The notes under the pieces are model-generated. The model was not told the DNA's origin and searched no databases. It worked only from the letters and a program-made list of their open reading frames with translations. 64,000 bases of DNA from Candidatus Uhrbacteria bacterium GW2011_GWE2_46_68. Its GTDB lineage: Bacteria; Patescibacteriota; Patescibacteriia; UBA9934; GWF2-40-263. Position numbers and translations under genes: made by a program. The DNA lies in contig LCMS01000007.1 in the NCBI GenBank assembly GCA_001002765.1, forward strand, positions 8,170 to 72,169. The letters are read 5' to 3'. Each line of letters starts with the position of its first letter. Positions within the stretch are counted from its first letter, which is position 1. Below, piece by piece: positions 3,585 through 30,630 of this stretch.

Positions 3585-3804
3585 TTACCGCTTAAGTACG
3601 ATAGGAGGGTATGAGAGCGGTCAGAACAACAGAACACAATGTTTATCAAAGAACTTTGGGGCGGTGAACTCTGGACGGATGGTTTCTTTGTCTCCACGGT
3701 TGGTGAAGGAGGAAACCGAGACGTGATTCGGATATATGTTGAGAAACAAGGAAACAAATCAGATATCACCCAGCTTAAGCTTTTCAATTTTTAACCTCTG
3801 ATAC

Positions 3805-7945: not shown

Positions 7946-8854
7946 ATGGCAGTTCAAACACGAGCCATCAAACGTCGCATCAAATCCGTAACCAGTACAC
8001 GTAAGATCACCAAGGCCATGGAATTGGTAGCGGCAAGCAAAATGCGCAAAGCCGTAAGCGCGGTTTTGGGGACACGACCTTATGCAACTCTGGCTTGGGA
8101 TACGGTCAAATCCGTGAGCAAAGTAACGCAGATCGATCTTCACCCCTTGCTTTATACCCACGGATCATCCAACAAAATTTTGTTAGTCCTCCTTTCTTCT
8201 GATCGTGGATTGGCTGGAGGGTTTAATGTGAATATGGTCCGCAAAACGTTCGAACGTTTGCGCGCATGGGAAGGAAAAGAAGTGGAAGTTATTTGTATTG
8301 GGCGGCGCGGTGCACACGCCATGAAAAAGGCGGGAAAAAATATTATTGCCAGTTTTACGGATATTACTACTGCTCCCACGTACAAAGATACATTACCTAT
8401 CGGACGTTTGATCGTGAACGAATTTGTCAAAGGAAGCTATGAGCAAGTTTTTGTTGCTTATACGGATTTTGTCAGCGCCATTGCTCAACAGCCAACTATT
8501 TTTCAGCTATTGCCTCTTGGTGCCTTAGAGGAATCAAAAGAATTGGGAAAAGTTTCACAAACAACTCCTGTCGAAGTGATCCGAGGGTCAAGAGAATATA
8601 CGTTTGAACCAAGCCCTGCTGATGTTCTCAATTTTCTTTTGCCAAAACTCATTGAAACCATGCTTTATCAAGCTGTTTTGGAATCCGCCGCCTCTGAACA
8701 TTCCGCGCGCATGATGGCCATGCGCAATGCCTCGGAGGCAGCGTCTGATATGATTCATGATCTTACTTTCACTTATAACCAGGCACGCCAAGCCGGGATC
8801 ACGCAAGAAATTGCGGAAATCAGCTCAGGCAAAGCCGCTTTGGAACAAACATAA
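7946..8854 (+). CDS. atpG: F0F1 ATP synthase subunit gamma
   Basis: 302 aa; gamma N- and C-terminal helices; operon position. Confidence 0.93.
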   Translation: MAVQTRAIKRRIKSVTSTRKITKAMELVAASKMRKAVSAVLGTRPYATLAWDTVKSVSKVTQIDLHPLLYTHGSSNKILLVLLSSDRGLAGGFNVNMVRKTFERLRAWEGKEVEVICIGRRGAHAMKKAGKNIIASFTDITTAPTYKDTLPIGRLIVNEFVKGSYEQVFVAYTDFVSAIAQQPTIFQLLPLGALEESKELGKVSQTTPVEVIRGSREYTFEPSPADVLNFLLPKLIETMLYQAVLESAASEHSARMMAMRNASEAASDMIHDLTFTYNQARQAGITQEIAEISSGKAALEQT

Positions 8855-10246
<1,392 letters not shown>

Positions 10247-10249
10247 ACT

Positions 10250-10705
10250 ATGGACATGCTTTCTTTGAAAATCGTTACTCCGGAAAAAATCGTGTTTGAA
10301 GATTCTGTCGCCTCCATTACGGTGATGACTCAAAACGGTGAGATCACGATTTTGCCGCATCATATTCCACTTGTCACACGAATGCGTGCGGGAGAATTGT
10401 GTTGTAAAAAAAATGGGGAGGAAATTTATCTGGCCGCTTCCACAGGTTTTTTAGAAGTGCGTCCGGGAAATCAAGTGATCATTTTGGCAGATACGGCCGA
10501 ACGCGTGGAAGAATTGGAATTACAAAAAATCGAATCGGCAAAAATAGCCGCGCAAAAATTACTCGAAGAGACACAGGGAGCCGATGATGTGGCATTTGCA
10601 AATGCACTGGCAGGTATGGAACGTGAAAGTGCTCGCTATAAAGTGGCCATCAAACGCCGGCATCCTAAAACTCCTCCTGCGCCACTTAATCCTAAAACAT
10701 CTTAA
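10250..10705 (+). CDS. atpC: F0F1 ATP synthase subunit epsilon
   Basis: 151 aa; beta-sandwich N-domain plus C-terminal helices; operon position. Confidence 0.9.
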   Translation: MDMLSLKIVTPEKIVFEDSVASITVMTQNGEITILPHHIPLVTRMRAGELCCKKNGEEIYLAASTGFLEVRPGNQVIILADTAERVEELELQKIESAKIAAQKLLEETQGADDVAFANALAGMERESARYKVAIKRRHPKTPPAPLNPKTS

Positions 10706-10714
10706 ATTTTTTCT

Positions 10715-11128
10715 ATGTCCCATACCTGTAAAGCCGCCTTGGTGCGTTGTATGGATTTTCGACTAGATCCGGAACTTACGGATTATGTACGTTCACAAAA
10801 TCTTCTGCACGACATTGATGTCATCTCGATTGCCGGAGCGGCAAAAAATATCGTGGATGATCCGCAAGGGTTTGTCATGACCCAAATCGGACTATCCGTG
10901 AAACTTCATGAAATCACCGAAGTGCATTTGATGCATCATTCCGATTGCGGAGCCTACGGTGGAAGCAAGATGTTTGCTTCTTTGGAAGAAGAAAAAGCCA
11001 TGCATATCGAGCAAATGCAAAAAGCAAAAGAGGTGATTTCCACCTCTTATCCCTCATTGATCGTTACAATGTTTTTTGCGGTGATCGGGGAAAATCAACA
11101 CATAAGTTTTGTGGAAAAAGTGGGCTAA
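10715..11128 (+). CDS. compact Cab-type beta-carbonic-anhydrase-like protein (paralog A)
   Basis: 137 aa; zinc-ligand motifs CMDFR (CxDxR) and HHSDCG (HxxCG) spaced ~60 residues; VISIAGAAKNIVDD and EVHLMHHSDCGAY align with M. thermoautotrophicum Cab (VIRNAGGRVTDD / VVLHHTDCGAQ); starts 10 nt after atpC. Confidence 0.7.
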   Translation: MSHTCKAALVRCMDFRLDPELTDYVRSQNLLHDIDVISIAGAAKNIVDDPQGFVMTQIGLSVKLHEITEVHLMHHSDCGAYGGSKMFASLEEEKAMHIEQMQKAKEVISTSYPSLIVTMFFAVIGENQHISFVEKVG

Positions 11129-12159
11129 GATTTGCCCGCCAATTGTCCGCAAGCCGCAGAAATCTCTTGACCATAAGAAGTACGCAAAGTGGTTATGATA
11201 TCTGATTCTTTGAGGAGACGCTGAAACGCGTCCCTTTGTTTTTTTGTACTGGAACGTAGATCACCCTCGGCTTTATTGTAAGGAATCAAGTTAACGCGAA
11301 TGCGATGGGAATCAATGGAATGAATAAAAGTGATAAGTTTTTTTGCATCTTCCGGACGATCATTGATGCCATCAAGAAGGATATATTCAAACGTAAGATG
11401 ATGGGTGCGGTTTCCTTGTTTTTCCAAATAGGCTTTTGTCCAATCGCGCAGATGATCAAAAAAATCATAAGGGGTGGACGGCATGATACGCGGACGCACC
11501 AAAGGGTCGGCACTATGAAGAGAAATGGCCATACGCACAGGCGGCCAAAGAGTATCTTCCAAAAGATGATCCAAGGAGGCAAAAATTCCTGCCGTGGAAA
11601 CCGTTATTTTTGTAGGACCCACATCCGTATACTCACACAAAATATTCAAGGCATCGCGAACATTCTCATAGTTTGCCATGGGTTCGCCCATGCCCATCAC
11701 GACAATATTGCTTATCCGCCCATGGATCTGTTCTTGTATTTTATACTGCTGCCAAAAACGATATTGATCCACGATTTCATCTTGACTCAACTGGCGTTTA
11801 AGCCCCATGGCACCGGTTGAACAAAATGCACAACGCATAGCGCAACCTACCTGGCTTGAAATACAAATGGTCCAGGCATCCCGCGCATTGCGCATAAGAA
11901 CAGATTCTATTTCAAGGCCATCGGTCAGTTGCAACAGAGATTTTATGGTTTCGTTGTCCTTTGTTTTTTCTATGGTTTTTACCTGCACTGATATCCAAGA
12001 AATGTCTTTTTCCACGGCTTCCCTCAAAAAAGAGGGGAAAGCACTCACTTCCTTCCATCCCTTTGCCTGTGAAAAAAGACCGGATAAGGCTTGTTTCCAT
12101 CGATAAGAAGGCTCGTTGGGGAAAAGTTTCTGGAATAATTGTTGTCGTGTGGGTATCAT
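11125..12159 (-). CDS. rlmN: 23S rRNA/tRNA adenine C2-methyltransferase (radical SAM)
   Basis: 344 aa; radical-SAM CAMRCAFC (CxxxCxxC); RlmN/Cfr family architecture. Confidence 0.9.
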   Translation of the reverse strand: MIPTRQQLFQKLFPNEPSYRWKQALSGLFSQAKGWKEVSAFPSFLREAVEKDISWISVQVKTIEKTKDNETIKSLLQLTDGLEIESVLMRNARDAWTICISSQVGCAMRCAFCSTGAMGLKRQLSQDEIVDQYRFWQQYKIQEQIHGRISNIVVMGMGEPMANYENVRDALNILCEYTDVGPTKITVSTAGIFASLDHLLEDTLWPPVRMAISLHSADPLVRPRIMPSTPYDFFDHLRDWTKAYLEKQGNRTHHLTFEYILLDGINDRPEDAKKLITFIHSIDSHRIRVNLIPYNKAEGDLRSSTKKQRDAFQRLLKESDIITTLRTSYGQEISAACGQLAGKS

Positions 12160-12301
12160 AGAATTACCATGATTCCATCATATGGAAGGACGCTTGGCAA
12201 TGAAACCCTTGCAAAAGGGAATTGTTGACAGGCATCTTTTTATTGCCTGTTGTCCTTACATCATGAAAGATCATAAGGATTATAGAACAAAAAATGTTTT
12301 T

Positions 12302-12754
12302 ATGCCTACTTATGTTTCGCAAAAAGGTTTGGATGATCTGAAAAAAGAATTTGAAAAACGCAAGGCTGCCCGCATGATTATTGCTGAAAAAATCGGGGAC
12401 GCAAAAGAATTAGGTGATCTGTCCGAAAATTTTGAATACCATGCGGCCAAAGAAGAACAGGGACTCAACGAGGCGCGTATGGCACAACTTGAGGAAATGA
12501 TCAAAGATTCAGTCATGATTTCCGAACAAAAAGGAGGCACCATCATTACGCTTGGCACATCTTTTAAGATTTCTTGCGATGGGGAAGAGAAGCGATTTGA
12601 AATGGTAGGATCAGCCGAAGCACATCCTTTTGAAGGAAAAATCAGCAATGAGTCTCCGCTTGGAGCCTCTTTTATGGGACACAAGGTAGGGGACACGGTC
12701 AACGTAGACATTCCATCTGGAACAAAGACCTATCAAATTTTAGAAATCACCTAA
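12302..12754 (+). CDS. greA: transcription elongation factor GreA
   Basis: 150 aa from ATG 12302; N-terminal coiled-coil with conserved acidic residues (GDLSENFEYHAAKEEQG) and C-terminal FKBP-like domain; aligns with E. coli GreA. Confidence 0.9.
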   Translation: MPTYVSQKGLDDLKKEFEKRKAARMIIAEKIGDAKELGDLSENFEYHAAKEEQGLNEARMAQLEEMIKDSVMISEQKGGTIITLGTSFKISCDGEEKRFEMVGSAEAHPFEGKISNESPLGASFMGHKVGDTVNVDIPSGTKTYQILEIT

Positions 12755-12780
12755 GCAGAAGAACTCATCACCTCATTTCT

Positions 12781-14265
12781 ATGATCCAAGAAGAACAACA
12801 ACGCCGCGAGCGTCTGGCACACTTGCGCGAGATCGGTCAAAATCCTTATCCCGCTCGTGTAAAACGCGACCTGTCCATACAGAAATTTTTGAAAGATTTT
12901 GAAGATCTTACAGCATCACAAAAAAAAGTCTCTCTTGTCGGACGCCTACGCTCTTTGCGTAAACACGGTGGACTTACTTTTTTGACGCTTGATGATGGTT
13001 CTGGAGCTGTGCAAATTGTCTGCACCAAGGATGCGCTTAGCGAAGATGTGTATGCAACATTTGGAAAAACTGTAGATGTCGCGGATTTTCTTGAAGTCAC
13101 CGGTCATCCGTTTCTCACACAAAAAGGAGAACGTTCTTTGAAGATCACTCATTATCAAATCATTACAAAAACATTACTTCCGCTTCCGGAGAAATGGCAT
13201 GGACTTTGCGATGTAGAAACTCGTTACCGTCAGCGGTATTTGGATTTGATCATGAACACGGAAGTAAAACAAAAAATGATGCAACGTTCATTGATCATCA
13301 CCGCCATCAGAACCGTTATGCAGACAAAAGGTTTTATAGAAGTGGAAACACCAACACTGCAACCTATCTATGGTGGAGGGTTTGCTCGTCCGTTTAAAAC
13401 CCATCATCACACATTGGATGCGGATTTTTATTTGAGAATTTCAGATGAAATGTATTTAAAACGTTTGCTCGTGGGTGGATTTGAAAAAGTGTACGAGATT
13501 ACAAAAGTTTTTCGAAACGAAGGAATGGATCGTGATCACAATCCTGAATTCACCATGTTCGAAGCCCAAGTGGCCTACGAAGATTATCGCTATGGCATGG
13601 ATTTATTTGAAGAGATTTTTGAGACATCGGCAAAAACCGTTTTGGGAACAACACAGATCGTCCATGAGGATATGGTGATTGATGTGAAGCGTCCTTGGCC
13701 GCGACTCACTCTTGTTGAATCCGTACAGTCTATCGGTGGAGTAGACGTTTCGCATTGGCAAAATGCAGATGAAGCAAAAAAAGAATTGGCAAAAAAATTA
13801 CCGACAAACAAAGGGACCGAACTTGAAAGAATGCACACGATCGGTGAAATCATCGCCTTTGCTTTTGAAGAACTGGTGGAAGAAAAACTCCTACAGCCCA
13901 CCATCATTTATGATTATCCCGTGGAAGTTTCTCCTTTGGCGAAAAAAGGTGTTGATCCGCGTTTTTCCGAACGCTTTGAAGCGTTTGCTCTTGGAAGTGA
14001 GATCGGGAATAATTATTCCGAACTCAATGATCCGCTCGATCTCACACAACGTTTTATCGAAGAAAAGAAAAAAGCTGAAGCCGGTTTTGAAGAAGCTCAT
14101 CAAACTGATCTTGATTATTTGGAAGCGATTAAACATGGTATGCCTCCGGCCTGCGGTCTTGGAATAGGAATTGATCGCATGGTCATGCTTCTTACCGGTT
14201 CATCCAATATCAAAGAAGTTATTTTGTTTCCCACCTTGCGTCCTCTTGATACGGATGCCTCCTAA
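12781..14265 (+). CDS. lysS: lysine--tRNA ligase (class II)
   Basis: 494 aa; N-terminal OB anticodon-binding domain; class II motifs (FRNEG, GLGIGIDR). Confidence 0.95.
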   Translation: MIQEEQQRRERLAHLREIGQNPYPARVKRDLSIQKFLKDFEDLTASQKKVSLVGRLRSLRKHGGLTFLTLDDGSGAVQIVCTKDALSEDVYATFGKTVDVADFLEVTGHPFLTQKGERSLKITHYQIITKTLLPLPEKWHGLCDVETRYRQRYLDLIMNTEVKQKMMQRSLIITAIRTVMQTKGFIEVETPTLQPIYGGGFARPFKTHHHTLDADFYLRISDEMYLKRLLVGGFEKVYEITKVFRNEGMDRDHNPEFTMFEAQVAYEDYRYGMDLFEEIFETSAKTVLGTTQIVHEDMVIDVKRPWPRLTLVESVQSIGGVDVSHWQNADEAKKELAKKLPTNKGTELERMHTIGEIIAFAFEELVEEKLLQPTIIYDYPVEVSPLAKKGVDPRFSERFEAFALGSEIGNNYSELNDPLDLTQRFIEEKKKAEAGFEEAHQTDLDYLEAIKHGMPPACGLGIGIDRMVMLLTGSSNIKEVILFPTLRPLDTDAS

Positions 14266-14268
14266 CAC

Positions 14269-15423
14269 ATGTCCCGCCATCGAACCTGGATCGAAATCAA
14301 CGAGCGTGCATTGCAACAAAACATCAACACGCTCCAAGGACTTCTCTCCGGAGGGGCGCGTTTTTGTGCAATCGTCAAAGCAAACGCTTATGGACACGGA
14401 TTGAAAGAAGTCACACATATTGCCGCAAGACAGGGGGTGGACGCGTTTGGAGTGGACACCATTGAGGATGCTCTTTTAATTCGTTCCTGGCTCCCCAGCG
14501 CCCTTGTGCTTACCTTGGGGTATGTATTGCCCGAGCAATATGAAGAAGCCGTCCATGAGCGCATTCATCTCACCATGTATGATTTGGATGCCCTGCGACT
14601 CCTTGAGGAGGAAGCAAAAAAACAAGCGGGAACAGCCTTTGTTCACTTGAAGATTGAAACCGGCACCCAACGTCAAGGTTTGTCTGAATTTGATCTTAAA
14701 CGATACTTGCAATCACTTTCTACGTTCCCGCATATTCAAATTGCAGGGGTGTCCACTCATTTTGCCAATATCGAGGATACCTCTGACACGAGTTTTGCCA
14801 CCTTGCAATTTCACCGATTCCAAAAAACTGTGGAGCAAATACAAACCGCTGGGATTCAACCAGAACATATCCATTGCGCATGCAGTGCGGCTATCATTTT
14901 ATATCCTTCCACCCACGGTTCTTTAGTGCGAGCGGGAATTTCTCTCTATGGTGTTTGGCCGTCTGAAATCACGGAGACAACGACACGGCGCCACGGAATC
15001 GCCTGTGACCTACGACCCGTCTTGTCGTGGAAAACGCGCATTGCTCAAGTACGATCCATTCCTGCCGGAACACCCATTTCGTATGGGATGACCGAGACTG
15101 TGTCAAAACCCACCCGTATTGCTGTGATTCCTGTGGGCTATTGGGATGGATATGATCGATCCCTTTCCTCTGTTGGAGAAGTATTGATCGCAGGAAATCG
15201 TTGTAAAGTTCTTGGGCGCATTTGTATGAACATGATGATGGTGGATGCATCGAGCGTCCCTCACATAGAGCCGGGACAAGAAGTGATTTTGATCGGGCGA
15301 TCCGGAAGACACGAAATCTCCGCATCGGTTCTTGCCAAACAAGCGAAGACTGTGCCCTATGAAGTTTTAGCGCGTCTCAATCCTTTATTGCCTCGGCAGG
15401 TCATTTCAGAAACCATCGTATGA
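14269..15423 (+). CDS. alr: alanine racemase
   Basis: 384 aa; PLP-lysine motif AIVKANAYGHG; alanine-racemase fold signature. Confidence 0.92.
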   Translation: MSRHRTWIEINERALQQNINTLQGLLSGGARFCAIVKANAYGHGLKEVTHIAARQGVDAFGVDTIEDALLIRSWLPSALVLTLGYVLPEQYEEAVHERIHLTMYDLDALRLLEEEAKKQAGTAFVHLKIETGTQRQGLSEFDLKRYLQSLSTFPHIQIAGVSTHFANIEDTSDTSFATLQFHRFQKTVEQIQTAGIQPEHIHCACSAAIILYPSTHGSLVRAGISLYGVWPSEITETTTRRHGIACDLRPVLSWKTRIAQVRSIPAGTPISYGMTETVSKPTRIAVIPVGYWDGYDRSLSSVGEVLIAGNRCKVLGRICMNMMMVDASSVPHIEPGQEVILIGRSGRHEISASVLAKQAKTVPYEVLARLNPLLPRQVISETIV

Positions 15424-16319
15424 CACGCCGACCGCGTCCTATTCTCCGCTTTCAAAAAACGCAATATGCGCGTCGACGATTTCAAAATCCTTATTTTCGT
15501 CATACTCCTCCTTGTTTTTGGAAAAAAATACTTCCTTGGTTGGTACTTATTTTTCTTTTCTTTTCTTTTTTGCTCTGGGTGGTTTTTGGCTCGCCCATTT
15601 TCCGCATCACTCAAGTCACCCTACAAGGAGCAAGCCCTTCTTCTTCCGGTGAACTGCAAATCCAAGTGGATTCTTTTCTTTCCACACGTCGTTTTCTTTT
15701 TTTTCACAATCACAATCATTGGTTATTCGATGAGGAATCATGTCGATCTTATCTTGAACAATTTTATGCGTTTGAAACGCTGATATTTGAATTCATTGAT
15801 CTTCATCAATTGTTTATCACCGTGCAAGAAAAAACTTCTTCCTTCCTCTGGGAAACCGACAATCATACCTTTGTCGTTGATCTACAAGGAACCGTGGTGC
15901 GTGAAATAACCCCCACAGAACAACAATGGCTCACCTCTGCTGCGCCTCCTGCGGAAAACGACCCCCTCCCCGAAGAACAACAGTCTTTTTTAAAACTTCC
16001 TCGTTTTCGTGATCTTAACAATGCTCCCATTGCTCCGGGTCTTGTTGTGGCTTCCCGGGAAGAAATCACTTCCATTTTTTCTTTTCAGCAAACGCTCACA
16101 ACACTCTCTATCCCTTTTTTGGAAACACAAATCGATCGACTTTCAGGAAAATGGATTGGGATCCTGACAAGTGACGGATATCTGGTGTTATTTGATGCGG
16201 CGGGAGATGTACAAGCACAAGCGATGCGACTGCAAAGTGTATTGAAAGAATCCATCCCCGATCCTTCTGTCTTAGATTATATCGACTTACGCTTTGGAGA
16301 CCATGTATACTTTAAGTGA
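15420..16319 (+). CDS. FtsQ/DivIB-like POTRA-domain membrane protein (putative)
   Basis: Basic cytoplasmic N-terminus, one TM helix, then a POTRA-like pattern (FRITQVTLQG..., FVVDLQGTVV); directly downstream of alr with ATGA overlap. Confidence 0.5.
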   Translation: MTRRPRPILRFQKTQYARRRFQNPYFRHTPPCFWKKILPWLVLIFLFFSFLLWVVFGSPIFRITQVTLQGASPSSSGELQIQVDSFLSTRRFLFFHNHNHWLFDEESCRSYLEQFYAFETLIFEFIDLHQLFITVQEKTSSFLWETDNHTFVVDLQGTVVREITPTEQQWLTSAAPPAENDPLPEEQQSFLKLPRFRDLNNAPIAPGLVVASREEITSIFSFQQTLTTLSIPFLETQIDRLSGKWIGILTSDGYLVLFDAAGDVQAQAMRLQSVLKESIPDPSVLDYIDLRFGDHVYFK

Positions 16320-16354
16320 TAGAATCCGTCTGCCACCACTCACAATAATTTCAA

Positions 16355-17644
16355 ATGATTCCTATGAAAACCATTTTTTCTTACGACAAACGATATCTTT
16401 GGACAAAAGGGGAGAGGAGTCTTTCCAAAATCGCTTTCCGCCAACTTCTACAGACAAAAACAAAAGGGGCTGTGGAAACCGTGAGAAAAAATCTCATGAC
16501 CCATGAAACGTCGGTTGTTTCTTTACCGTTTGCTTCTACAGAAGAAATACAATCGTGGGCTTTTCATATCCAGAAAACCTATACTCACCTTTTAGTGATT
16601 GCCACGGGTGGATCGAGTTTGGGTGCACAGGCAATAATACATGCCATTGCAGGGAGCACTTCAAAAACCAAGGTGCTTTTTCTTTCCAATCCTGATCCGG
16701 ATGAATACAGACGTATCACAAAAGGATTACCTTGGGTAACCACCGGTGTTTTGGTTATTTCAAAGTCTGGAAAGACGCTTGAGGTACTTTCTCTTTTTCT
16801 TCTTGTGCGCGAGCAACTCCAAAAAAAATTGGGAAAGCAACACACTTCTCATCTTTTTATTTTAACCCAATTTGATGAAAATCCTCTTTACCTTTTTGCA
16901 AAAGAACAAGGGTATACTCTTTTGCCTCATGTTGATATCGGTGGACGATTTTCCGTTCTTTCTTCTGTGGGTCTTCTTCCGGCAGCGGTATCGGGAGTTC
17001 CCATTGCCGATCTTTTAAAGGGAGCAGCCGATCTTTTAGGAGAGTATCAAAAGCAAGGATTCTCACATGCGGTGAGTCATTTTGTCACGGCCCAATACCT
17101 TGCCTACACGCTTGGAAAAACAGAACAGATCCTCATGCCTTATACGGAACGTTTGACACTCTTTACCAAATGGTACCGACAATTGTGGGCAGAATCTCTT
17201 GGGAAAGAACGGCGGGGAAGGGGAGTGGGTCCTACCCCCATTGATGCCTTGGGGACTGTGGATCAACATTCACAAATCCAGCTTTACAATCAAGGATTGA
17301 AAAACAAAATTTTAACATTTATAGAACTGACAAATTTTGATGAAGAGTCTCCTGTTCTTCGGAAGATTGCTGGGCTCCCTGACGCATTTAAAGAGGCTGC
17401 AAGCCCCCTTTCACTGATCGTGCGAGCTTCCTGTCGTGGAACGGCCTGCGCATCTGCTACACACGAAAGTCCGGGAGGAATTCTTTCCGTTCCAAAACTT
17501 GATGCTTATCATCTTGGAGCATTATTCCTATTTTTTGAACTGGCCGTTATTTTGTATGCGGAGCTTCTTCAGGTGAACCCCTATGACCAGCCGGGTGTAG
17601 AAGAAGGAAAAAGACAAATCAAAAAATTATTATCTTCCTTATGA
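16355..17644 (+). CDS. pgi: glucose-6-phosphate isomerase
   Basis: 429 aa; SIS-domain motifs LVIATGGSSLGAQA and VISKSGKTLE; DQHSQIQLYNQG. Confidence 0.9.
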   Translation: MIPMKTIFSYDKRYLWTKGERSLSKIAFRQLLQTKTKGAVETVRKNLMTHETSVVSLPFASTEEIQSWAFHIQKTYTHLLVIATGGSSLGAQAIIHAIAGSTSKTKVLFLSNPDPDEYRRITKGLPWVTTGVLVISKSGKTLEVLSLFLLVREQLQKKLGKQHTSHLFILTQFDENPLYLFAKEQGYTLLPHVDIGGRFSVLSSVGLLPAAVSGVPIADLLKGAADLLGEYQKQGFSHAVSHFVTAQYLAYTLGKTEQILMPYTERLTLFTKWYRQLWAESLGKERRGRGVGPTPIDALGTVDQHSQIQLYNQGLKNKILTFIELTNFDEESPVLRKIAGLPDAFKEAASPLSLIVRASCRGTACASATHESPGGILSVPKLDAYHLGALFLFFELAVILYAELLQVNPYDQPGVEEGKRQIKKLLSSL

Positions 17645-18030
17645 ATGAAGATATAACCCCACCTTCTCCCTTTTATGGTGTCGTAAAATAGGATTATTTT
17701 TTTAAGTACCTTACAGGGAAGGGGATTTTCATTTTTCGTTTGAATGATGGTCTTTTTTAAAAATCTTATAAAAAATGTATAGAAGAACTAGATGGGGTTA
17801 AATCCCATAAAAAAATACGGATGATCTAAAGATCTTAAAAAAGTATTCGACACCTGTTTTTATTTAAAAAAGATAAGGTATCGCTCTTTCTTGGTCGTTT
17901 AGGGGGGAGGAACCCTCCTTACAGGGACAAGAAGGACAGGAAGATGCGTTGTGAAAGGTACGATCCTATAGGTCTTTTCTTTCCCTAGTGTCGTCTAAGT
18001 CTTATTGTGCGACACTACAGAGATAAAAAG

Positions 18031-18062
18031 AAAATGTCCTTATTTGGGACATTTTTTATTTC
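18031..18062. terminator. bidirectional Rho-independent terminator
   Basis: aaaatgtcc-ttatttg-ggacatttt hairpin flanked by T-runs on both strands, in the convergent gap between pgi (+) and the minus-strand genes. Confidence 0.6.
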
Positions 18063-18088
18063 TCACCTTAGTCTTTTTTCCTCCCCCC

Positions 18089-18301
18089 CTACCCTAAAAC
18101 AGCCGGAAGAATATCCGTCATGTAGATGAGTAAAAGCAAGATTGCTCCTATAAGGAAAAAAGCGATACCCAACATTGTTAACGCTTTAATAATTGCATCG
18201 TCTTCCATAATTCCTCGAAGCATATGGATACTCAATCCCAAAAAAACGATAAGCGGTGTAAGGAAAAGAAACCAGCTAATAATTTTTACAGCAAGAATCA
18301 T
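18089..18301 (-). CDS. small membrane protein (2 TM), hypothetical
   Basis: 70 aa; two strongly hydrophobic helices; abuts the end of the M23 peptidase gene. Confidence 0.4.
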   Translation of the reverse strand: MILAVKIISWFLFLTPLIVFLGLSIHMLRGIMEDDAIIKALTMLGIAFFLIGAILLLLIYMTDILPAVLG

Positions 18302-18302
18302 A

Positions 18303-19574
18303 TTAATAAGAAAGTAGATACGTCATGGGATCCACAGGAATACCGTTTAAACGCACTTCAAAGTGCAAATGAGGTCCGGTTGATAATCCCGCCCCTTGCG
18401 TACCAGGCATGCCACCCGTATAACCGATGATATCCCCTCTTGAAACAAATTGATCTGCTGTGACCTCAATCCCAGACATGTGGGCGTACAAAGTTGCAAT
18501 ACCATTGGCATGGATGATCATCACGTAATTACCATACATGTTTCCAAGACGTGTCCAAGCAACGTATCCAGGAGCTGCTGCTTTAAGCGGTGTCCCCTGC
18601 CCTGCTGGAATATCGATCCCGGAATGCTCGAATAAATGGCGGAACGGATACGTAGGGTCGTGAAATGTCGCAGAAAGTCCACGCACCGGATCCACCGGCC
18701 AAGAAAGGACCGTATTATCCCCATACTCATCATTTTGTGTGATTCTTGACTCCATTTCCTTTTGAAGCAAGGAAACCTCGTAGTTCAAGTATTGTTGTTC
18801 CTGCTGCACTTCTTTTAACAATTCTTGAAATTGGGTTTCTGATCTTGCGGTTGCAAGCAACAAACTGTCCTTGGCATAACTTTCTTTTTCCAGGGCGACA
18901 AATTGTTGTACCAAATCTTCTCCCAATTGATCCAACTGTTCCCGTTTCGTCTGTTGAATTGTTTTTGCGCTGACCACTTGATTTTTTGATGTTTGTGTCG
19001 CCTCCAGGGAATCTTTCAAATCGCGATTCATATCCTCCAAATAACGGAGGTGATCAAAAATGTCAGAAAAAGATTGACTGCCAAAATAGACTTCCAAAGA
19101 CAATTTATTATCTTGAACTTGCATGGATTGCAACACTTCTTTAAGGACCATTTTTTGATCTTCCCACTGCTGTTCCAAAACAGTTAACTGTTTTTCCAAT
19201 AAAACGATTTGTGTGTTGACAAGATCAATTTCTTCGTTGGTTGCTTCAATATCAAGCTTGGCCTTTGCCATTCGATTTTCCAAAAGCTCCATTTCATTTT
19301 GAATGGAAACTTTTTCCGATTCTTTTTGCCGAATCTTTTGACTGTAAGCTTCAATCTTTTGATTAAGATAATCGATGTCTTCTTGTTTGGTTTTGATATC
19401 TTGATTGAGATCATTGATTTCTGCGCTGACATCCTCTTGTGCCCACAGGGGCGAAACATAAAAACCTCCGACCATACAGATACAGAAAATCAAAACCGCG
19501 CCTACGAAGAAGCCGCGACCTTTTGCAGAGCGCATTGAAGACGTTGAAGACTTTCCTCCTTTCCACATACCCAT
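18303..19574 (-). CDS. M23-family metallopeptidase with N-terminal coiled-coil (EnvC-like)
   Basis: Signal/TM N-terminus, ~250 aa coiled-coil, C-terminal LytM/M23 motifs (YAHMSGIEV, TGPHLHFEVR). Confidence 0.85.
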   Translation of the reverse strand: MGMWKGGKSSTSSMRSAKGRGFFVGAVLIFCICMVGGFYVSPLWAQEDVSAEINDLNQDIKTKQEDIDYLNQKIEAYSQKIRQKESEKVSIQNEMELLENRMAKAKLDIEATNEEIDLVNTQIVLLEKQLTVLEQQWEDQKMVLKEVLQSMQVQDNKLSLEVYFGSQSFSDIFDHLRYLEDMNRDLKDSLEATQTSKNQVVSAKTIQQTKREQLDQLGEDLVQQFVALEKESYAKDSLLLATARSETQFQELLKEVQQEQQYLNYEVSLLQKEMESRITQNDEYGDNTVLSWPVDPVRGLSATFHDPTYPFRHLFEHSGIDIPAGQGTPLKAAAPGYVAWTRLGNMYGNYVMIIHANGIATLYAHMSGIEVTADQFVSRGDIIGYTGGMPGTQGAGLSTGPHLHFEVRLNGIPVDPMTYLLSY

Positions 19575-20974
19575 AAAAGTTCAAAGGGACTTGAAGAATG
19601 CTGAGCGCCTGAAAGCGCTACGCGCAATGGCCAAAGCACATTCCCACTGGGAATTTCATTACTCTCAATATACTGCCAAATGGCCTTCTCGATCAATGGA
19701 AGATCTTCCCATGTTGCTTCGGGAAAATCGGTACACATCCGCAACAAAGCTTCCATGTGTTTTTTTGCATCAAGAACATCGGACTTTTTCCACACCAAAA
19801 GTGCCACATCATACTCTGGAATGATGAGATATTCCTGAATCTTGGATGGAATTTCATCAAAACGAACAAGACGCTCTTTTTCCACGTGATAGATACGTTG
19901 TAATTTTTCTTGAGAAACACCAAAATCGGACAGAGTGAATTTTTGGCAGTACTCAAGGTAAGTCTCCTCTGGCAATTGACGAATATACATTCCGTTCATC
20001 CAATCTAATTTTTCTCGATTAAAAATTGCTCCGCTTTTGTTGATTTTTTCCAAGGCAAATTCTTCGGTGAGCTCGGACACGGAATAAATCTCTTGATTCC
20101 CTTTTGGATTAAATCCCAGAAGGGCGATAAAATTCAACAAAGCTTCAGGCAAATACCCTTTTGCCAAATAATCTTCCACAGCCACATCTCCTTGACGTTT
20201 AGAAAGTTTGGAACGGTCTTCATTCAAAATAAGAGGCACGTGGGCAAAAACCGGAAGCTCCCAACCAAACGCACGGTACAGCAAAACATGTTTTGGCACA
20301 GAAGAAATCCACTCTTCTCCACGAATGATATGCGTGATCCCCATATAGTGATCATCCACAACAACCGCGAGATGGTATGTGGGGAATCCGTCAGATTTAA
20401 GAAGTACTTGATCATCCACCTCTTGATTGGCAATGGTGATTCTTCCGCGAATCACATCTTCAAAAGAGGTCTCCCCTTCCGGCACCAACAATCGAATAAC
20501 ATACGATTCCCCCTGTTCCAATCGTTTTGTTATTTCTTCTTTTGACAACGAAAGGCAATGACGATCATATTTGGTCGGCATCTTGGCGATTTCTTGTTGA
20601 TATCGCAATTGCGCCAAACGATCTGATGAGCAAAAGCAATAATAGGCTTTCCCTGATTCTACGAGTTCTTTTGCGTGCTTTTGATAAATGGCTAAGCGTT
20701 GCGATTGAATATAAGGGCCATGATCCCCTCTTTGCTCCAATGTGCCATTGACGGAAAACGGACCCTCTTCATAGATGATTCCCGTTATGGCTAAGGTGCG
20801 CAAAAGACTTTCTATGGCGCCCTCCACATAACGTTGCTGGTCCGTGTCCTCAATGCGTAATACCATTTTCCCCCCTTGTTTTCGCGCAAAAAGATAATTA
20901 TAAAAAGCTGTCCGAAGACCGCCGATATGAAGAAATCCTGTGGGTGACGGAGCAAAACGTGTTTTCACATTCAT
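19502..20974 (-). CDS. gltX: glutamate--tRNA ligase
   Basis: Start at MNVKTRFAPSPTGFLHIGG (HIGH motif) with ATGA overlap onto the upstream gene stop; KLSKR (KMSKS) motif. Confidence 0.93.
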   Translation of the reverse strand: MNVKTRFAPSPTGFLHIGGLRTAFYNYLFARKQGGKMVLRIEDTDQQRYVEGAIESLLRTLAITGIIYEEGPFSVNGTLEQRGDHGPYIQSQRLAIYQKHAKELVESGKAYYCFCSSDRLAQLRYQQEIAKMPTKYDRHCLSLSKEEITKRLEQGESYVIRLLVPEGETSFEDVIRGRITIANQEVDDQVLLKSDGFPTYHLAVVVDDHYMGITHIIRGEEWISSVPKHVLLYRAFGWELPVFAHVPLILNEDRSKLSKRQGDVAVEDYLAKGYLPEALLNFIALLGFNPKGNQEIYSVSELTEEFALEKINKSGAIFNREKLDWMNGMYIRQLPEETYLEYCQKFTLSDFGVSQEKLQRIYHVEKERLVRFDEIPSKIQEYLIIPEYDVALLVWKKSDVLDAKKHMEALLRMCTDFPEATWEDLPLIEKAIWQYIESNEIPSGNVLWPLRVALSGAQHSSSPFELLWVCGKEESLQRLQCALQKVAASS

Positions 20975-21759
20975 ACATTCTTTTCCTCTTTTTTTCTTAC
21001 AAATAGCTTTCGTATTGTATCCCAAATAACCAGGGTCGGGAAGATGATCACAGCTGTAAAAATGCGCTTTAAACGTTTAGGTTCACACCAAAGTCTCCAT
21101 AACCATTCAAACCCAAAACGTTGAAAAATTTTTGGAGCGCGTTTTATTTTTCCTGATAAAAAATCAAATGCTCCTCCTACGCCCACGGCGATTTTTACGG
21201 ACGGGAAAAAATCCTTATGTCCTAAAATCCAACGTTCTTGTTTTTCGTGACCCAAAGCCACAAATAAAATATCCGGCTGTACTTCTTGAATGCGCCCCAC
21301 CACTTGAGCGTCTTCTTTAAACTTCCATTCTCCTTCTTTATACAAAAGTTCTCCCCCGCTTTCGCCAAAAATTTGAAGATGAGGAAAGTTCACATGAAGC
21401 TTCTGCAGGGTTAGCCCGATAACCTCATCTGTTGATCCCAAAAGAAAAACCGTTTTTTTATGTAAAGCCGCATACATAAGTAGCGCATGTATGATGTCAT
21501 TTCCTGTCAGACGTTGAAGCCCTCTTCCCTGTGTGAGAAAAACGAGCCAGGAAACTCCTACCCCATCGGCAACGCACAGAGACATTTTTTGAAGCGCTTG
21601 TTGAAATTCCTTATGATTATGAGAGGCGACAAGCATCTCGGGATTAACGGTCGCAATCGCGTGAAACCCGGGATCATCAAAAAAACTTAAAAGGAGTTCG
21701 TGAATTTTTTCTCGCGAAAGAGCACAGACGGGAATATCGAGTACACATGTTTTTTTCAT
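20971..21759 (-). CDS. WecB/TagA/CpsF-family glycosyltransferase
   Basis: 262 aa; GFEWLWRL motif diagnostic of the family. Confidence 0.8.
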   Translation of the reverse strand: MKKTCVLDIPVCALSREKIHELLLSFFDDPGFHAIATVNPEMLVASHNHKEFQQALQKMSLCVADGVGVSWLVFLTQGRGLQRLTGNDIIHALLMYAALHKKTVFLLGSTDEVIGLTLQKLHVNFPHLQIFGESGGELLYKEGEWKFKEDAQVVGRIQEVQPDILFVALGHEKQERWILGHKDFFPSVKIAVGVGGAFDFLSGKIKRAPKIFQRFGFEWLWRLWCEPKRLKRIFTAVIIFPTLVIWDTIRKLFVRKKEEKNV

Positions 21760-22298
21760 AAAGGAAACGAGGCGAGTGTCTCATACAAACTTCCCGCAGG
21801 CGTGAGTTTGCTTTTCATCAGCTCAAAAGAGGTGACAGAAAAAGAAAGAGGCGACCATGGTATTTTTTCCGGCTGCAAAACTTCGGACTGAACTTTTACG
21901 CGCCCCAAAGTGATATGAGGAGTCCAAGGTCTTGTATCCACAGAAAGACCCATACCCACAAGGACATCAGCCAAACGTTTATAAAGCCCTAATGCTTGCG
22001 TCGGTAAAGAAGTGGAAACAAGCAAGGTGTGTGGTTGCTTTTTATGGGGAAACGCTCCGACTTCTTTCAAAGTCAAAAAAAATTCTTCCGGGTAGCTGCG
22101 CGCGGCCAACTGTTCCCTCAATATCACCTCTAAAACTCTTTTTTCTTCCACTAAAAAATGTAAGGTGACATGAAAATTTTCAGGTTCTACCCAAGAAACC
22201 TTGCTATATACCATCTGTATCCGCATCGCTTCCTTTATTTTTGACAACTCTTGTTTGACTTCGGAAGGAAGATTGATTGCTAAAAATAATCGCCACAT
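21756..22298 (-). CDS. thpR: RNA 2',3'-cyclic phosphodiesterase (2H family, LigT/ThpR)
   Basis: Two H-x-T-x motifs (HVTLHFL, HITLGRV); start taken at MWRLFLAINLP. Confidence 0.8.
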   Translation of the reverse strand: MWRLFLAINLPSEVKQELSKIKEAMRIQMVYSKVSWVEPENFHVTLHFLVEEKRVLEVILREQLAARSYPEEFFLTLKEVGAFPHKKQPHTLLVSTSLPTQALGLYKRLADVLVGMGLSVDTRPWTPHITLGRVKVQSEVLQPEKIPWSPLSFSVTSFELMKSKLTPAGSLYETLASFPL

Positions 22299-22325
22299 AA
22301 TTCTGTAAATCAGTGTACCAAATTT

Positions 22326-22366
22326 TTGACAATCGTGATCTGGCACTCTATACTTGAGAGTGCTAA
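22326..22366 (+). promoter_or_regulatory. clpB promoter (TTGACA-17-TATACT) overlapped by a CIRCE-like inverted repeat
   Basis: -35 at 22326-22331, -10 at 22349-22354. CTGGCACTC-N9-GAGTGCTAA (22340-22366) matches CIRCE TTAGCACTC-N9-GAGTGCTAA (right half 9/9, left 7/9, N9 exact length). ATG at 22382. Confidence 0.65.
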
Positions 22367-22381
22367 ATTCATTGTTTTTTT

Positions 22382-25015
22382 ATGATTCCAAACAATTTTA
22401 CCCACAAGGCACAAGAAGCGATCCAAAATGCCCATAACTTGGGTGTGGAAAACGGACAACAAGGTGTAGACCCCATTCATCTGCTTGCCGTTCTCGTGAG
22501 TCAAGATGACGGGGTGGTAACCGCCGTCGTCAATAAAATCACTCCACAACTGACCGATCTGCGTGCCAATATCGATAATATTCTCGAAGGCCTTCCAAAA
22601 TCCGCGCATCATACACAAGGAGGTTTGGGTCAAGTTTTTCTTTCTCCCGATGTCGTTCGTGCATTTCAACAAGCGCATAAAAAAGCAAAAGGGTTTGGAG
22701 ATGAGTTTATTTCAACCGAACATTTGCTCTTGGGTCTTCTTGTGATCAAACCAATCAACAGTCTTCTGGCTCGTTATGAAGTAACAGAGGAGACCATCAT
22801 GCAAGCGCTCAAAGATATTCGCGGCAATCAAAAAGTGGATTCTCCCGAGCCGGAATCTCGTTATCAAGCGCTTGAAAAATATAGTTTGAACTTAACTGAA
22901 ATGGCGCGTAAAGGCGAGCTTGATCCCATCGTCGGACGCGATGCGGAAATCCGGCGTGTCATGCAGGTTCTTTCCCGTCGCACAAAAAATAATCCTGTTT
23001 TGATCGGAGAAGCCGGGGTGGGAAAAACCGCCATTGTCGAAGGGCTCGCGCAGCGCATTGTCGCCGGAGATGTCCCCGAAATGCTCAAAGATAAAGAAAT
23101 CGTTTCTCTGGATTTGGGATCCATGGTTGCCGGAACAAAATATCGTGGAGAATTTGAAGATAGGCTTAAGGCAGTCATCAAAGAAATCGAGCAATCCGCA
23201 GGCAAAATGATTCTCTTTATTGATGAGCTCCATACCCTGGTGGGTGCGGGCACATCCGAGGGAAGCCCTTTGGATGCCTCTAACATGCTTAAACCATCTT
23301 TGGCGCGCGGTAAGCTCCATGCCATTGGCGCCACGACCATCAAAGAATATCAAAAACATATCGAGAAAGATCAGGCTCTCGAACGTCGCTTTCAGCCTGT
23401 CGTTGTGGAAGAACCATCAGTTGAAGATACCATCGCTATTTTGCGCGGTATTAAAGAAAAATATGAGGTACACCACGGGGTGCGCATCAGTGATCCCGCC
23501 TTGATCGCCGCCTCTGAACTTTCTCATCGTTATATCACGGATCGTTTTCTTCCCGATAAAGCCGTGGATTTGATCGATGAAGCCAGCTCGGCCTTGCGTA
23601 TGCAAATTGATTCCATGCCCGAAGAACTTGATATCATGAAACGCGATTTGATGCGCCTCGAAATCGAGCGCAAAGCTCTCGAAAGCGAAGAAGATAAACA
23701 TTCCAAAGAACGCAAAAAAGAAATTGAAGAACAAATCGCAAACCTGCGTGAAAAAACCGATGCGCTGGAAGGCAAATGGAAAAATGAAAAAGAAAAGATT
23801 ACGGCGATTCGTACCATTAAATCCGAAATTGAAAAACTCCGTGCCGAAGCTGAAATACAAGAACGCAAAGGAGACTTGGAAATGGTGGCAAAAATTCGTT
23901 ATGCGCAAATTCCGGAAGCGGAACGAAAATTAACCGACGCTACAAAATCCCTTGCACGTTTACAAAAAGAACGCGGCATTTTGAAAGAAGTGATTTCTGA
24001 AGAAGACATTGCTAACGTTGTTTCCCGCTGGGTGCATATCCCGGTTTCCAAAATGTTGGAATCCGAATTGCAAAAACTCACTCACATGGAAGAAGAGCTG
24101 CAAAAACGCGTGGTGGGTCAAAAGGAAGCCATTCTTGCTGTCAGCAACGCTCTACGTCGTTCTCGAGCCGGCATTGCTGAGGAAAATCGCCCCATAGGCT
24201 CTTTTATCTTCTTGGGTCCCACAGGGGTGGGAAAAACCGAGCTGGCACGCGCCTTAGCCGAATTCATGTTTCATGATGAATCCGCCTTGATCCGCCTCGA
24301 CATGTCCGAATATATGGAAAAACACGCTGTGTCCAAAATGATCGGATCCCCTCCCGGTTATGTGGGCTATGACGAAGGTGGGCAGTTAACCGAACTTGTG
24401 CGCCGCAAACCCTATTCGGTTCTCTTGTTTGATGAAGTGGAAAAAGCGCATCCCGATACGTTCAATATCCTGCTTCAAATCATGGATGATGGGCACTTAA
24501 CCGATGCTAAGGGCCGTAAAGTCAATTTCAAAAACACCATCATTATCATGACGAGCAATATCGCGACAGATCTCATCCAACACACGGGGCATGCCATGGG
24601 CACCATGGGATTTGTAAGCGAGGAGGGCGAGGAAGAAAAACAATCCAAAGAAATGATCATGGAACGCATGAAAGAACATTTTCGCCCAGAATTCTTGAAC
24701 CGTCTGGATGAAATCATCGTCTTTCACTCTCTCGCTGAGGATCAAATCGCGGATATTGTGGAACTGCAAATCAAGCGCGTGGCTACCCGTCTTGTAAAAC
24801 AAAGAGATATCGAGCTCATTGTCACTCCAGCCGCCAAAAAACTTCTGGCCAAGAAGGGGTATGAACCCGCTTATGGGGCTCGTCCGCTCAAACGTGTGAT
24901 CCAACATTTGATTCTCGATCCTCTCTCTTTGCAAATCGTCAGTGGAGAAGTGAAAGGAGGAGCCAAAGTAACGATCGGAGCCAAAGGAGAAGAAATCGCA
25001 ATCACAACAAAATAA
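22382..25015 (+). CDS. clpB: ATP-dependent chaperone ClpB
   Basis: 877 aa; Clp N-domain, two AAA+ modules ([16 protein letters not shown]), long middle coiled-coil. Confidence 0.97.
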
Positions 25016-25025
25016 TATTACTCAA

Positions 25026-25068
25026 GCAAAATTACCCGTCACACACGGGTGATTTTGCTCTTCATCTC
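25026..25068 (+). terminator. terminator after clpB
   Basis: Long hairpin gcaaaattacccgt-cacac-acgggtgattttgc followed by a T-rich tail. Confidence 0.5.
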
Positions 25069-25111
25069 TGAGGTGAGGTACAAAAAGAAAAACCTCTCCT
25101 ATGAGAGGTTT
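25069..25111 (-). terminator. Rho-independent terminator for the minus-strand beta-CA-like paralog B
   Basis: aaacctctc-ctatg-agaggttt hairpin; on the minus strand it is followed by TTTCTTTTTG, 4 nt after the stop at 25115. Confidence 0.6.
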
Positions 25112-25114
25112 GCG

Positions 25115-25525
25115 CTAGACAGGTTCTACACAAGTGATCCGATCGTTTTCCCCGATCACCGCAAAAAACATTAGAACGGTCAATGAGGGATAAGAGGTGG
25201 AAATCACCTCTTTTGCTTTTTGCATTTGCTCGATATGCATGGCTTTTTCTTCTTCCAAAGAAGCAAACATCCTGCTTCCACCATAGGCTCCGCAATCGGA
25301 ATGATGCATCAAATGCACTTCGGTGATTTCATGAAGTTTTACGGATAGTCCGATTTGGGTCATGACAAACCCTTGCGGATCATCCACGATATTTTTTGCC
25401 GCTCCGGCAATCGAGATCACATCAATGTCGTGCAGAAGATTTTGTGCACGTACATAATCCGTGAGTTCCGGATCCAGCCGAAAATCCATACAACGCACCA
25501 AGGCGGCTTTGCAGGTATGAGACAT
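25115..25525 (-). CDS. compact Cab-type beta-carbonic-anhydrase-like protein (paralog B)
   Basis: 136 aa; protein near-identical over most of its length and ~93% nt identical to paralog A where compared (diverges only over the last ~16 residues); same CMDFR / HHSDCG motifs; opposite orientation. Confidence 0.7.
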   Translation of the reverse strand: MSHTCKAALVRCMDFRLDPELTDYVRAQNLLHDIDVISIAGAAKNIVDDPQGFVMTQIGLSVKLHEITEVHLMHHSDCGAYGGSRMFASLEEEKAMHIEQMQKAKEVISTSYPSLTVLMFFAVIGENDRITCVEPV

Positions 25526-25539
25526 AGGAGGACCTCGTT

Positions 25540-26160
25540 CTAAAAGAAGTTGCTCATTTTGGTCAAAAGCGATGGTTCATCCGCAGGGCGTGGAAACGCA
25601 GCGATCACACCTGCTTTGACAGGCTGTACTGTAAAAACAACGGGTTCTTCTCCTACAATACCAACTGGGGTTACAAAAACCGACTGGCCACCTTTGATAT
25701 GAGGCGTCATCCGAACAACCGTGATCTCGTTGCCAGACACTTTCTCGCGTTCGGCAGGTGGGGAAACAAGAAACTCAATCGTATAATCAGATGTTTCCGA
25801 TACATGATTATCTTTCAAAAACCAATCCGGCGGGATGAGCGCGCAGGTGTCCATGGAAAATTCTTCCAAAACAACATTGGCGTTCATAAACACATCCCCG
25901 TGAGCGTTATAAAGGACGATCCATCCGGAGAGAGCCGAAGGAAATTCCCAATTGGTGGTAGACTTGTGCACGCAAATCGCCACTTCGATATCTCCCGGCC
26001 TGGTTTCTTCGCTTGTGACCGGATCTGATTTGCCGCATCCGGGAAAGAGGAAGATCCCAGCTCCAATAATGATGCAGAAAAACAGACCAACGATCACCAC
26101 CCGAATCCAAATGGGAACATCGGTTTTTCCATTTTCGTCTACGAAAAAGCGAAAGCACAT
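25540..26160 (-). CDS. membrane-anchored hypothetical protein
   Basis: Start taken at MCFRFF (the ORF could extend to 26241); one N-terminal TM helix (VVIVGLFFCIIIGAGIFLF), then a ~150-aa extracytoplasmic domain; immediately upstream of paralog B on the same strand. Confidence 0.5.
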   Translation of the reverse strand: MCFRFFVDENGKTDVPIWIRVVIVGLFFCIIIGAGIFLFPGCGKSDPVTSEETRPGDIEVAICVHKSTTNWEFPSALSGWIVLYNAHGDVFMNANVVLEEFSMDTCALIPPDWFLKDNHVSETSDYTIEFLVSPPAEREKVSGNEITVVRMTPHIKGGQSVFVTPVGIVGEEPVVFTVQPVKAGVIAAFPRPADEPSLLTKMSNFF

Positions 26161-26336
26161 GGTCTCTCCTGTGTAGGGACGGGGGGTTTCCTCGCCCATG
26201 TATTTTGAATTTTGTGTAGATTGAAAAGAACAACTCACCACAAAAGTGATAGCTCACTATGTTTGAAAACCGCTATTTTGTCAATGGAAAAATACAAAAA
26301 ATCCTTCAAAAATAAGCAAAAAAGTAAAAGCTGATC

Positions 26337-27768: not shown

Positions 27769-27775
27769 GTCGCTT

Positions 27776-29149: not shown

Positions 29150-29157
29150 CTCTATTT

Positions 29158-30624: not shown

Positions 30625-30630
30625 TCTTTG

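Follow-up and report, generated by a model that had tools for sequence, protein, structure and literature searches.

Inverted, gene-converted paralogs of a beta-carbonic-anhydrase-like gene at the borders of a possibly invertible 14-kb block in Candidatus Uhrbacteria

The 64-kb window analyzed here (64,000 nucleotides (nt) of contig LCMS01000007.1 from Candidatus Uhrbacteria bacterium GW2011_GWE2_46_68) contains two genes for a beta-class carbonic anhydrase (CA)-like protein of the Pro_CA_2 family. The two genes, copy A and copy B, lie in inverted orientation on either side of a block of housekeeping genes. Sequence comparison indicates that they are an older paralog pair whose core has been homogenised by gene conversion. 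Contigs from other assemblies carry the junctions that a crossover between the copies would create, and a passive, rare inversion between gene-converted inverted paralogs is our best explanation of the locus as a whole; we judge it to be evenly poised between right and wrong. The orientation seen in the window is the ancestral, long-term dominant state. The locus involves no new mechanism and is an ordinary recombination substrate, not a programmed switch. The source population is that of Rifle aquifer groundwater, and the organism belongs to the Candidate Phyla Radiation (CPR).

A repeat search shows that the window holds exactly one inverted repeat of at least 40 nt. Its arms are 404 nt each, 95% complementary and 14,007 nt apart, and each coincides with most of one CA-like gene. 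The elements of the repeat, as defined by the repeat search and alignment, are as follows.

10713..11116, + strand: arm A, from 2 nt before the ATG of copy A to codon ~134
25124..25527, - strand: arm B
10715..11128, + strand: copy A, Pro_CA_2 (beta-CA-like), 137 aa, last gene of the F1Fo ATP-synthase (atp) operon
25115..25525, - strand: copy B, Pro_CA_2, 136 aa, second gene of a two-gene unit
10969..11060, + strand: longest A/B-identical run in copy A, nt 255-346 of the coding sequence (CDS), 92 nt
25180..25271, - strand: the same 92-nt identical run in copy B
11129..25114, no strand: block that would invert, 14 kb, 11 genes

In the alignment, homology sets in 2 nt ahead of the ATG; neither the upstream nor the downstream flanks of the two copies are related. 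The 3' ends of both genes point inward, toward the block. Three runs are identical between the copies, of 92 nt (CDS nt 255-346), 77 nt (109-185) and 56 nt (187-242), and these reach the tens of nt at which RecA-type recombination can act. Both copies share single contigs of up to 88 kb, which places the two inverted paralogs on one replicon. The first-pass annotation had paired the genes at 10715-11128 (+) and 25115-25525 (-) as near-identical, and both are indeed intact open reading frames (ORFs). The mirrored alternative-frame ORFs that it listed at 10945-11205 and 25062-25295 are also present; they arise because of the repeat and are a by-product of it.

The nucleotide identity of ~93% that had been estimated for the pair corresponds to 29 differences over the whole CDS, which are very unevenly spread. 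Thirteen fall in nt 1-380 (96.6% identity), referred to here as the core, and 16 are crowded into the tail at nt 381-411 (48%). By stretch, identity is 93.5% (nt 1-108), 98.7% (nt 109-346), 91.2% (nt 347-380) and 48% (nt 381-411), so that divergence within the core is graded and lowest at its centre (6.5, 1.3 and 8.8%, respectively). Eight of the 13 core differences are synonymous; the five non-synonymous nucleotides change four residues. The resulting ratio of non-synonymous to synonymous divergence (pN/pS) is 0.017/0.098 = 0.17, and both copies are therefore under purifying selection, in agreement with the earlier statement that both are maintained as proteins.

Comparison with a sister species (L058, whose atp proteins are 91-97% identical to those of the window and whose CA is 82% identical) places the core and the tail differently. 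Copy A matches the sister-species gene at 81% in the core and 74% in the tail, and copy B at 82% and 45%. The closest relative thus differs by part: the core pairs A with B, whereas the tail pairs A with the sister-species ortholog. This disagreement, together with the gradient of divergence that is lowest at the centre, argues for concerted evolution, in which paralogs are closer to each other than to orthologs in the exchanged part and the edges are older. Both C-terminal tails match the C-terminal pattern of the family; that of copy B fits it (I-x-x-V-E) with 15 of 31 nt identical to copy A. By synonymous divergence (pS 0.098 versus 0.56), the latest conversion is roughly one sixth as distant as the sister species.

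In the mechanism that we propose, copy A is the ancestral gene closing the ATP-synthase operon, and copy B an additional one that lies on the opposite strand after the gene for a membrane protein. The two loci occasionally undergo gene conversion, which keeps the first ~380 nt near-identical while the tail and flanks have diverged, a step to which the comparison above attests. Because the copies lie in inverted orientation, a crossover would invert the block, and the geometry suggests that RecA-type homologous recombination resolved in this way could flip all 14 kb. The same crossover would be expected to swap the C-terminal tails and the 3' contexts, exchanging a terminator spacer for an overlap with rlmN. 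On this model, non-crossover outcomes homogenise the core and crossover outcomes would invert the block, the latter possibly seen in the contigs described below. An inversion of this kind would be a passive and rare polymorphism, probably neutral or slightly deleterious, on a dominant ancestral orientation.

The fetched contigs were all typed, each from its flanks and from its alleles at 22 diagnostic nucleotide sites. The 90%-identity protein cluster comprises eight distinct sequences, several of them A/B mosaics. Junctions predicted by inversion are found in five contigs from five assemblies or sample accessions, four of the atpC-CA-clpB type and one of the reciprocal membrane-CA-rlmN type. 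Contig L022 (10,046 bp, no Ns) reads atpG-atpD-atpC-CA-clpB(-)-thpR-tagA-gltX-M23, with the haplotype AAAAAAAABA|BBBB.... across its CA gene. In L023 (1.3 kb) and L024 (1.2 kb), atpC is followed by a CA gene with the copy-B tail and the copy-B 3' spacer (haplotype AAAAAAAAAA|BBBB....), and L025 (4.5 kb) carries atpC-CA-clpB with the haplotype AAAAAAAA|BBBB.... Each of these four contains a single A-to-B switch, positioned in the 92-nt run in L022, L023 and L024 and in the 56-nt run in L025. The reciprocal contig, L026 (1.2 kb), has a mosaic haplotype with its switch in a 27-nt identical run. The chimeric CA ORFs are all intact.

The flanks of the junction contigs relate some of them to particular strains. 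On its atp side, L022 shares ~28 single-nucleotide polymorphisms (SNPs) with L008; L008 and L052 carry the copy-A haplotype of L022 in the normal orientation, and one strain background therefore occurs in both arrangements. The block side of L022 is not assignable to a strain because the population is almost without SNPs at 17-25 kb. L026 has private SNPs on both flanks and so hangs together as the sequence of a single divergent strain. An exact 48-mer of the repeat had no match in one metagenome-contig collection, evidently one without the source population; contigs of the JGI carry it. Two further leads were dropped. P0056 and P0060 had the appearance of a reciprocal swap at site 85 on one 88-kb contig, that is, of a double inversion, and turned out to lie on different 88,139-bp scaffolds from different samples. 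Contig ends at 21876/21881 and ~27.9 kb were considered as a marker for pairing samples; they coincide with the SNP at 21873 and with a paralog repeat at 27915, and so carry no information on which sample a contig came from.

Across the wider locus, SNPs between assemblies are clustered in patches at 8143-8437, 9448-9643, 10129-10345, 11290-11553, 14394-15459 and 16202-16705. The patches span a few hundred nt to ~1 kb at ~1-3% divergence, with identical stretches between them. This patchiness suggests a strain mosaic, produced either by recombination among co-existing strains or by mixed consensus sequences; on the former reading it argues that recombination is active in the population.

The locus of the window recurs in GCA_001002565.1 (LCMG01000020), GCA_003506835.1, GCA_003519005.1, JGI 3300001242/3300025154 and many ENA assemblies, as found by exact protein look-ups. 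Three relatives, represented by four loci with CA identities of 82% (L057/L058), 72% (L056) and 49% (L020/L060), have the order (tatD ...) atp operon-atpC-CA-rlmN(-)-greA-lysS-alr(-299-aa ORF-pgi-M23(-)), to the end of each contig. Because the relatives keep the same order, the orientation of the window and the position of copy A are ancestral. A second, inverted CA copy was not detected in any relative, the fetched 10-kb flanks stopping short of its expected position. The first-pass annotation had named two observations that would speak against an invertible segment, long reads all in one orientation and collinear relatives with a single copy, and the relatives are collinear with, apparently, one copy.

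Skew at third codon positions (GC3 skew) points to the same ancestral state. Read on the + strand, it is about -0.125 for + genes and about -0.15 for - genes of the right flank; the similarity of these values indicates that the skew reflects replication and not transcription. The eight block genes at 14-25 kb have a mean of -0.14, the same as the right flank. A GC-skew discontinuity at the two copies, which had been proposed as a check, is absent at both copy A and copy B, and the sole sign change lies at ~14 kb, inside the block. Over the window, GC3 skew is near zero or positive to the left of ~14 kb and about -0.14 over 14-64 kb on either gene strand, and the cumulative GC-skew maximum falls at 13-14 kb, within lysS/alr. 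This change could represent a replication terminus, a skew boundary or the noise of a short left flank.

The five junction contigs could instead be short-read misassemblies, in which case the paralogs and their concerted evolution would be real and there would be no detectable inversion; we give this explanation serious weight, at somewhat less than an even chance. Reads would overlap within the 56-92-nt identical runs, and the 5' arm of copy A would be threaded into the 3' arm of copy B. A number of observations fit such an artefact and weigh against a true inversion. Four of the five contigs are no longer than 4.5 kb (1.2-1.3 kb and 4.5 kb, beside the 10 kb of L022), and L025 is visibly poor: its clpB is frameshifted, and one end consists of ~90 nt of junk. 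The reciprocal junction was seen only once, in the 1.2-kb L026; when rlmN, clpB, the membrane protein and atpC were looked up by exact match, no long membrane-CA-rlmN contig was found and only L022/L038 and L025/L053 came back. Four of the five switches sit in the longest identical runs (92 and 56 nt), where de Bruijn assemblers also mis-thread, so that short-read misassembly would give this pattern too, and in many assemblies contigs break within the repeat (L045, L035, L036 and Logan contigs, the last uninformative since they end 31 nt into the 92-nt run). At the central sites 186/243/254, which are difficult to phase, two 88-kb scaffolds have mosaic alleles. In the 88-kb scaffold_266 both copies have identical alleles at these sites, as the collapse of an assembly bubble predicts; here, assembler collapse is as likely a cause as gene conversion. 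Every long contig, the three relatives and GC3 skew favour one orientation. Set against the five junction contigs, ~30 public contigs share the window arrangement, among them all those of at least 12 kb, three NCBI metagenome-assembled genomes (MAGs) and two 88-kb scaffolds. The GC3 skew of the block, undiluted and equal to that of the right flank, indicates that the block has not been flipped for appreciable evolutionary time. Other features are less easily explained by misassembly. The predicted junctions come from five assemblies or sample accessions with two naming styles, k141_ contigs and ANAN16 scaffolds. We take names in k127_ and k141_ to mark MEGAHIT-style assemblies, and the ANAN16 scaffolds to be the output of an iterative de Bruijn assembler; the final k that the k127/k141 names imply exceeds the longest run, of 92 nt. 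At low coverage or with mixed strains, however, such assemblers can join arms through a shared run even at a final k above 92. L022 extends 2.8 kb and 6.8 kb past the repeat without Ns, and neither of its arms is simply window sequence, because the atp side has the L008 SNP haplotype and the block-side allele at 21873 occurs in no other contig examined. In L026, the switch run of 27 nt is too short to confuse assembly at k of at least 29, and private SNPs are present on both flanks. Taken together, the five junction contigs support a crossover inversion without proving it, and from these sequences we regard a real inversion polymorphism as about as probable as its opposite. That the block recurrently flips in natural Uhrbacteria, with at least three independent crossover points and at least two strain backgrounds, is a tentative proposition that we hold a little short of even.

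A programmed invertible element, driven by a recombinase and altering expression in the manner of phase variation, is extremely improbable at this locus and has been largely refuted. Inverted repeats do stand at the block boundaries, and a flip would place the highly expressed atp operon in a different 3' setting (a terminator spacer in place of antisense read-through into rlmN) and swap the C-terminal tails. Yet the Pfam tables contain no invertase and no tyrosine or serine recombinase called within 10 kb of either arm, where the only mobile-element trace is a 67-aa fragment of an insertion sequence (IS), the IS200-type Y1_Tnp, ~7 kb to the left. The repeats, each a coding sequence of 404 nt, are not short recombinase sites, and the block consists of 11 housekeeping genes. 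Both gene starts and both promoters, including a promoter-like site of the copy-B unit, lie outside it, so that no promoter or coding start flips. The relatives have the same gene order without a second copy within reach, GC3 skew bears no trace of a period in the other orientation, and the large majority of contigs have one orientation. None of the marks of a programmed element is present: a dedicated recombinase, short sites with an internal promoter or alternative ends, or balanced occupancy. What stands of the proposed invertible segment is its geometry and the predicted junctions in five contigs; a programmed element does not, and a single orientation dominates. It is also very unlikely that copy B arose by one recent partial duplication (nt -2 to ~380) placed before an unrelated tail, with no later exchange. 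The homology boundary at the ATG is sharp, and a second copy was not detected in the sister species or other relatives, as such an event would have it. The copy-B tail is nevertheless still homologous to the family C-terminus, sharing its 15 of 31 nt with copy A, and the graded divergence (6.5, 1.3 and 8.8%) is what repeated conversion tracts, and not a single copying, would be expected to leave. Replacement of the 5' 380 nt of an existing paralog would itself be a conversion event.

The closest described system to a passive inversion between gene-converted paralogs is the tufA/tufB pair of Salmonella enterica. According to Brandis et al. 2019 (PMC6735719) and Paulsson et al. 2017 (PMC5485169), both citing Hughes 2000, gene conversion makes the inverted tuf genes evolve together, and nearly half of the recombination events obtained by selection turn the interval between them around. 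The same two papers describe this inversion as costing fitness through an altered terminator/promoter context. The likeness extends to inverted coding paralogs on one chromosome, near-identity attributed to RecA-type gene conversion, inversion of the interval by a crossover, one conserved orientation and a terminator/promoter context that can change at the junctions. The repeat is shorter and less similar here (~380 nt at 96.6%, versus ~1.2 kb at ~99% in tuf), the interval of 14 kb compares with a much larger one, and the genes belong to a non-essential-looking CA-like family, whereas tufA and tufB encode EF-Tu. A crossover here would also exchange divergent C-terminal tails, unlike one between the tuf genes. 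The host is an uncultivated CPR bacterium and its inversion is read from metagenome contigs, in contrast to the genetic demonstration for tuf.

Inversions between rrn operons or IS copies offer a second comparison, in which passive homologous recombination between inverted repeats gives rise to strain-level inversion polymorphisms. Those repeats are kilobases long and usually symmetric about the origin or terminus; the repeat here is a short single-gene paralog around a small block. With the site-specific systems Hin, Gin/Cin, FimB/E and shufflons, the locus has in common a segment bounded by inverted repeats and, as in shufflons, C-terminal ends that can be exchanged. Unlike them, it has no recombinase and its repeats are long and coding. 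The block contains no promoter or alternative cassette, and there is no sign of balanced orientations among the contigs typed.

If the inversion is true, the locus would be a natural counterpart of tufA/tufB in an uncultivated, reduced-genome CPR bacterium, and gene conversion and crossover between short paralogs would operate in that organism and create strain-level structural variants. Recurrent flipping, if true, would produce chimeric CA-like proteins with swapped C-terminal tails at each flip, give the ATP-synthase operon a proper terminator and make the membrane-protein unit run antisense into rlmN. It would also be direct evidence that a CPR bacterium is structurally heterogeneous and has active intrachromosomal homologous recombination, visible in existing metagenomes. 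The locus is a spot at which short-read assemblies of this population disagree, and is relevant for users of MAGs in synteny, iRep or GC-skew analysis and strain tracking. A more intriguing by-product concerns the CA-like gene itself, whose place at the end of the ATP-synthase operon is conserved across many CPR-like genomes.

Both copies match the Pfam family PF20393 (Pro_CA_2) at 58-59 bits against a cutoff of 30, and fall below the threshold of PF00484 (Pro_CA) at 20.4-20.6 bits against 25.7. Like the beta-class carbonic anhydrases of PF00484, they keep the zinc-site motifs CxDxR and HxxC; D14, R16, H75 and C78 are invariant and C12 nearly so in an alignment of ten Pro_CA_2 members. A family profile built from this alignment has weak matches to the solved beta-carbonic anhydrases 5ztp, 1ylk and 3las (E ~1e-3, in the CxDxR...HxxC region). 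The proteins differ from PF00484 members in length (136-137 aa versus ~165-240 aa), and the label 'beta-CA-like' given in the first-pass annotation is a fair one in view of these matches.

A further difference from the beta-class carbonic anhydrases is that, in many CPR-like genomes, the Pro_CA_2 gene closes the F1Fo ATP-synthase operon. Among 81 related metagenome loci (L056-L136), at least 28 have a Pro_CA_2 gene directly after atpC, closing the operon, and these include distant loci with CA identities of only 34-50%. Literature searches found no link of the family to ATP synthase or Uhrbacteria. The conserved linkage to atpC may say more about the role of Pro_CA_2 than does the name 'carbonic anhydrase'. 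In three relatives (L074 839-1734, L088 9461-10387 and L096 10001-12302), two Pro_CA_2 genes share a strand; the pair is adjacent in L074 and L088 and separated by ~1.6 kb in L096. Duplication of the gene therefore recurs. An inverted, distant pair is seen only in the species of the window.

Outside the two copies, the following features flank the repeat.

10250..10705, + strand: atpC, left outside flank
25540..26241, - strand: first gene of the copy-B unit, right outside flank, called as 206, 219 or 233 aa
25034..25111, - strand: two terminator-like sites (hairpin and T-run), just 3' of the copy-B stop
26256..26284, - strand: promoter-like site TTGACA-17-CATAGT, upstream of the membrane-protein/copy-B unit, a consensus match only

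Copy A starts 9 nt past the atpC stop and so ends the atp operon, as had been proposed. Its own stop lies within the 3' end of the convergent rlmN, with an overlap of 4 nt, and leaves no terminator spacer. The description of copy B as second in a two-gene minus-strand unit with a membrane protein is likewise borne out: it starts 14 nt past a gene for a protein with one hydrophobic segment, for which Pfam and NCBIfam give no match. The spacer between copy B and the convergent clpB is 99 nt long and carries both terminator-like hairpins.

The block consists of rlmN (-); greA, lysS, alr, a 299-aa ORF and pgi (+); an M23 peptidase, gltX, a tagA-family gene and thpR (-); and clpB (+). Pfam and NCBIfam support the earlier gene list for ten of these (rlmN, greA, lysS, alr, pgi, M23, gltX, tagA-family, thpR and clpB), and have no family match for the 299-aa ORF that it called 'ftsQ-like'. 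The gap between the convergent pgi and M23 genes (17645-18302) is 659 nt, unusually long for a compact genome, and contains only an ORF of 39-70 aa that is called in some assemblies. No Rfam family or tRNA was detected in scans of the window; a Phe_leader match in the 17.6-18.3 kb gap is below threshold (28.9 bits versus 55). At 22296-22310, in the region of the thpR start and upstream of clpB, an indel-type stretch of ~15 nt distinguishes LCMG01000020 (L011) from the window, and thpR is called as 180, 191 or 196 aa depending on the assembly.

To the right of the repeat, at 27752-31863, three tandem paralogous ORFs (465, 488 and 411 aa) follow a 470-aa ORF and contain the direct-repeat families D1-D4, with 63-85% nucleotide identity. 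The 470- and 465-aa ORFs have no NCBIfam match, and none of the ORFs in this region has a precomputed Pfam match. Contigs of other assemblies often stop at ~27.9 kb, where the direct repeats begin. To the left, other assemblies of the same population have ~45 extra nt at window position 3648-3650, a length difference for which no tandem repeat was found. The 67-aa Y1_Tnp fragment is called across this point in L002-L004 (region ~3639-3800). The first 3,500 nt of the window have a G+C content of 52-56%, compared with ~44% elsewhere, and gene calls vary there: some assemblies have a 464-aa minus-strand ORF at 1038-2432, and in L002 and L003 the ORFs called are shorter and lie on both strands.

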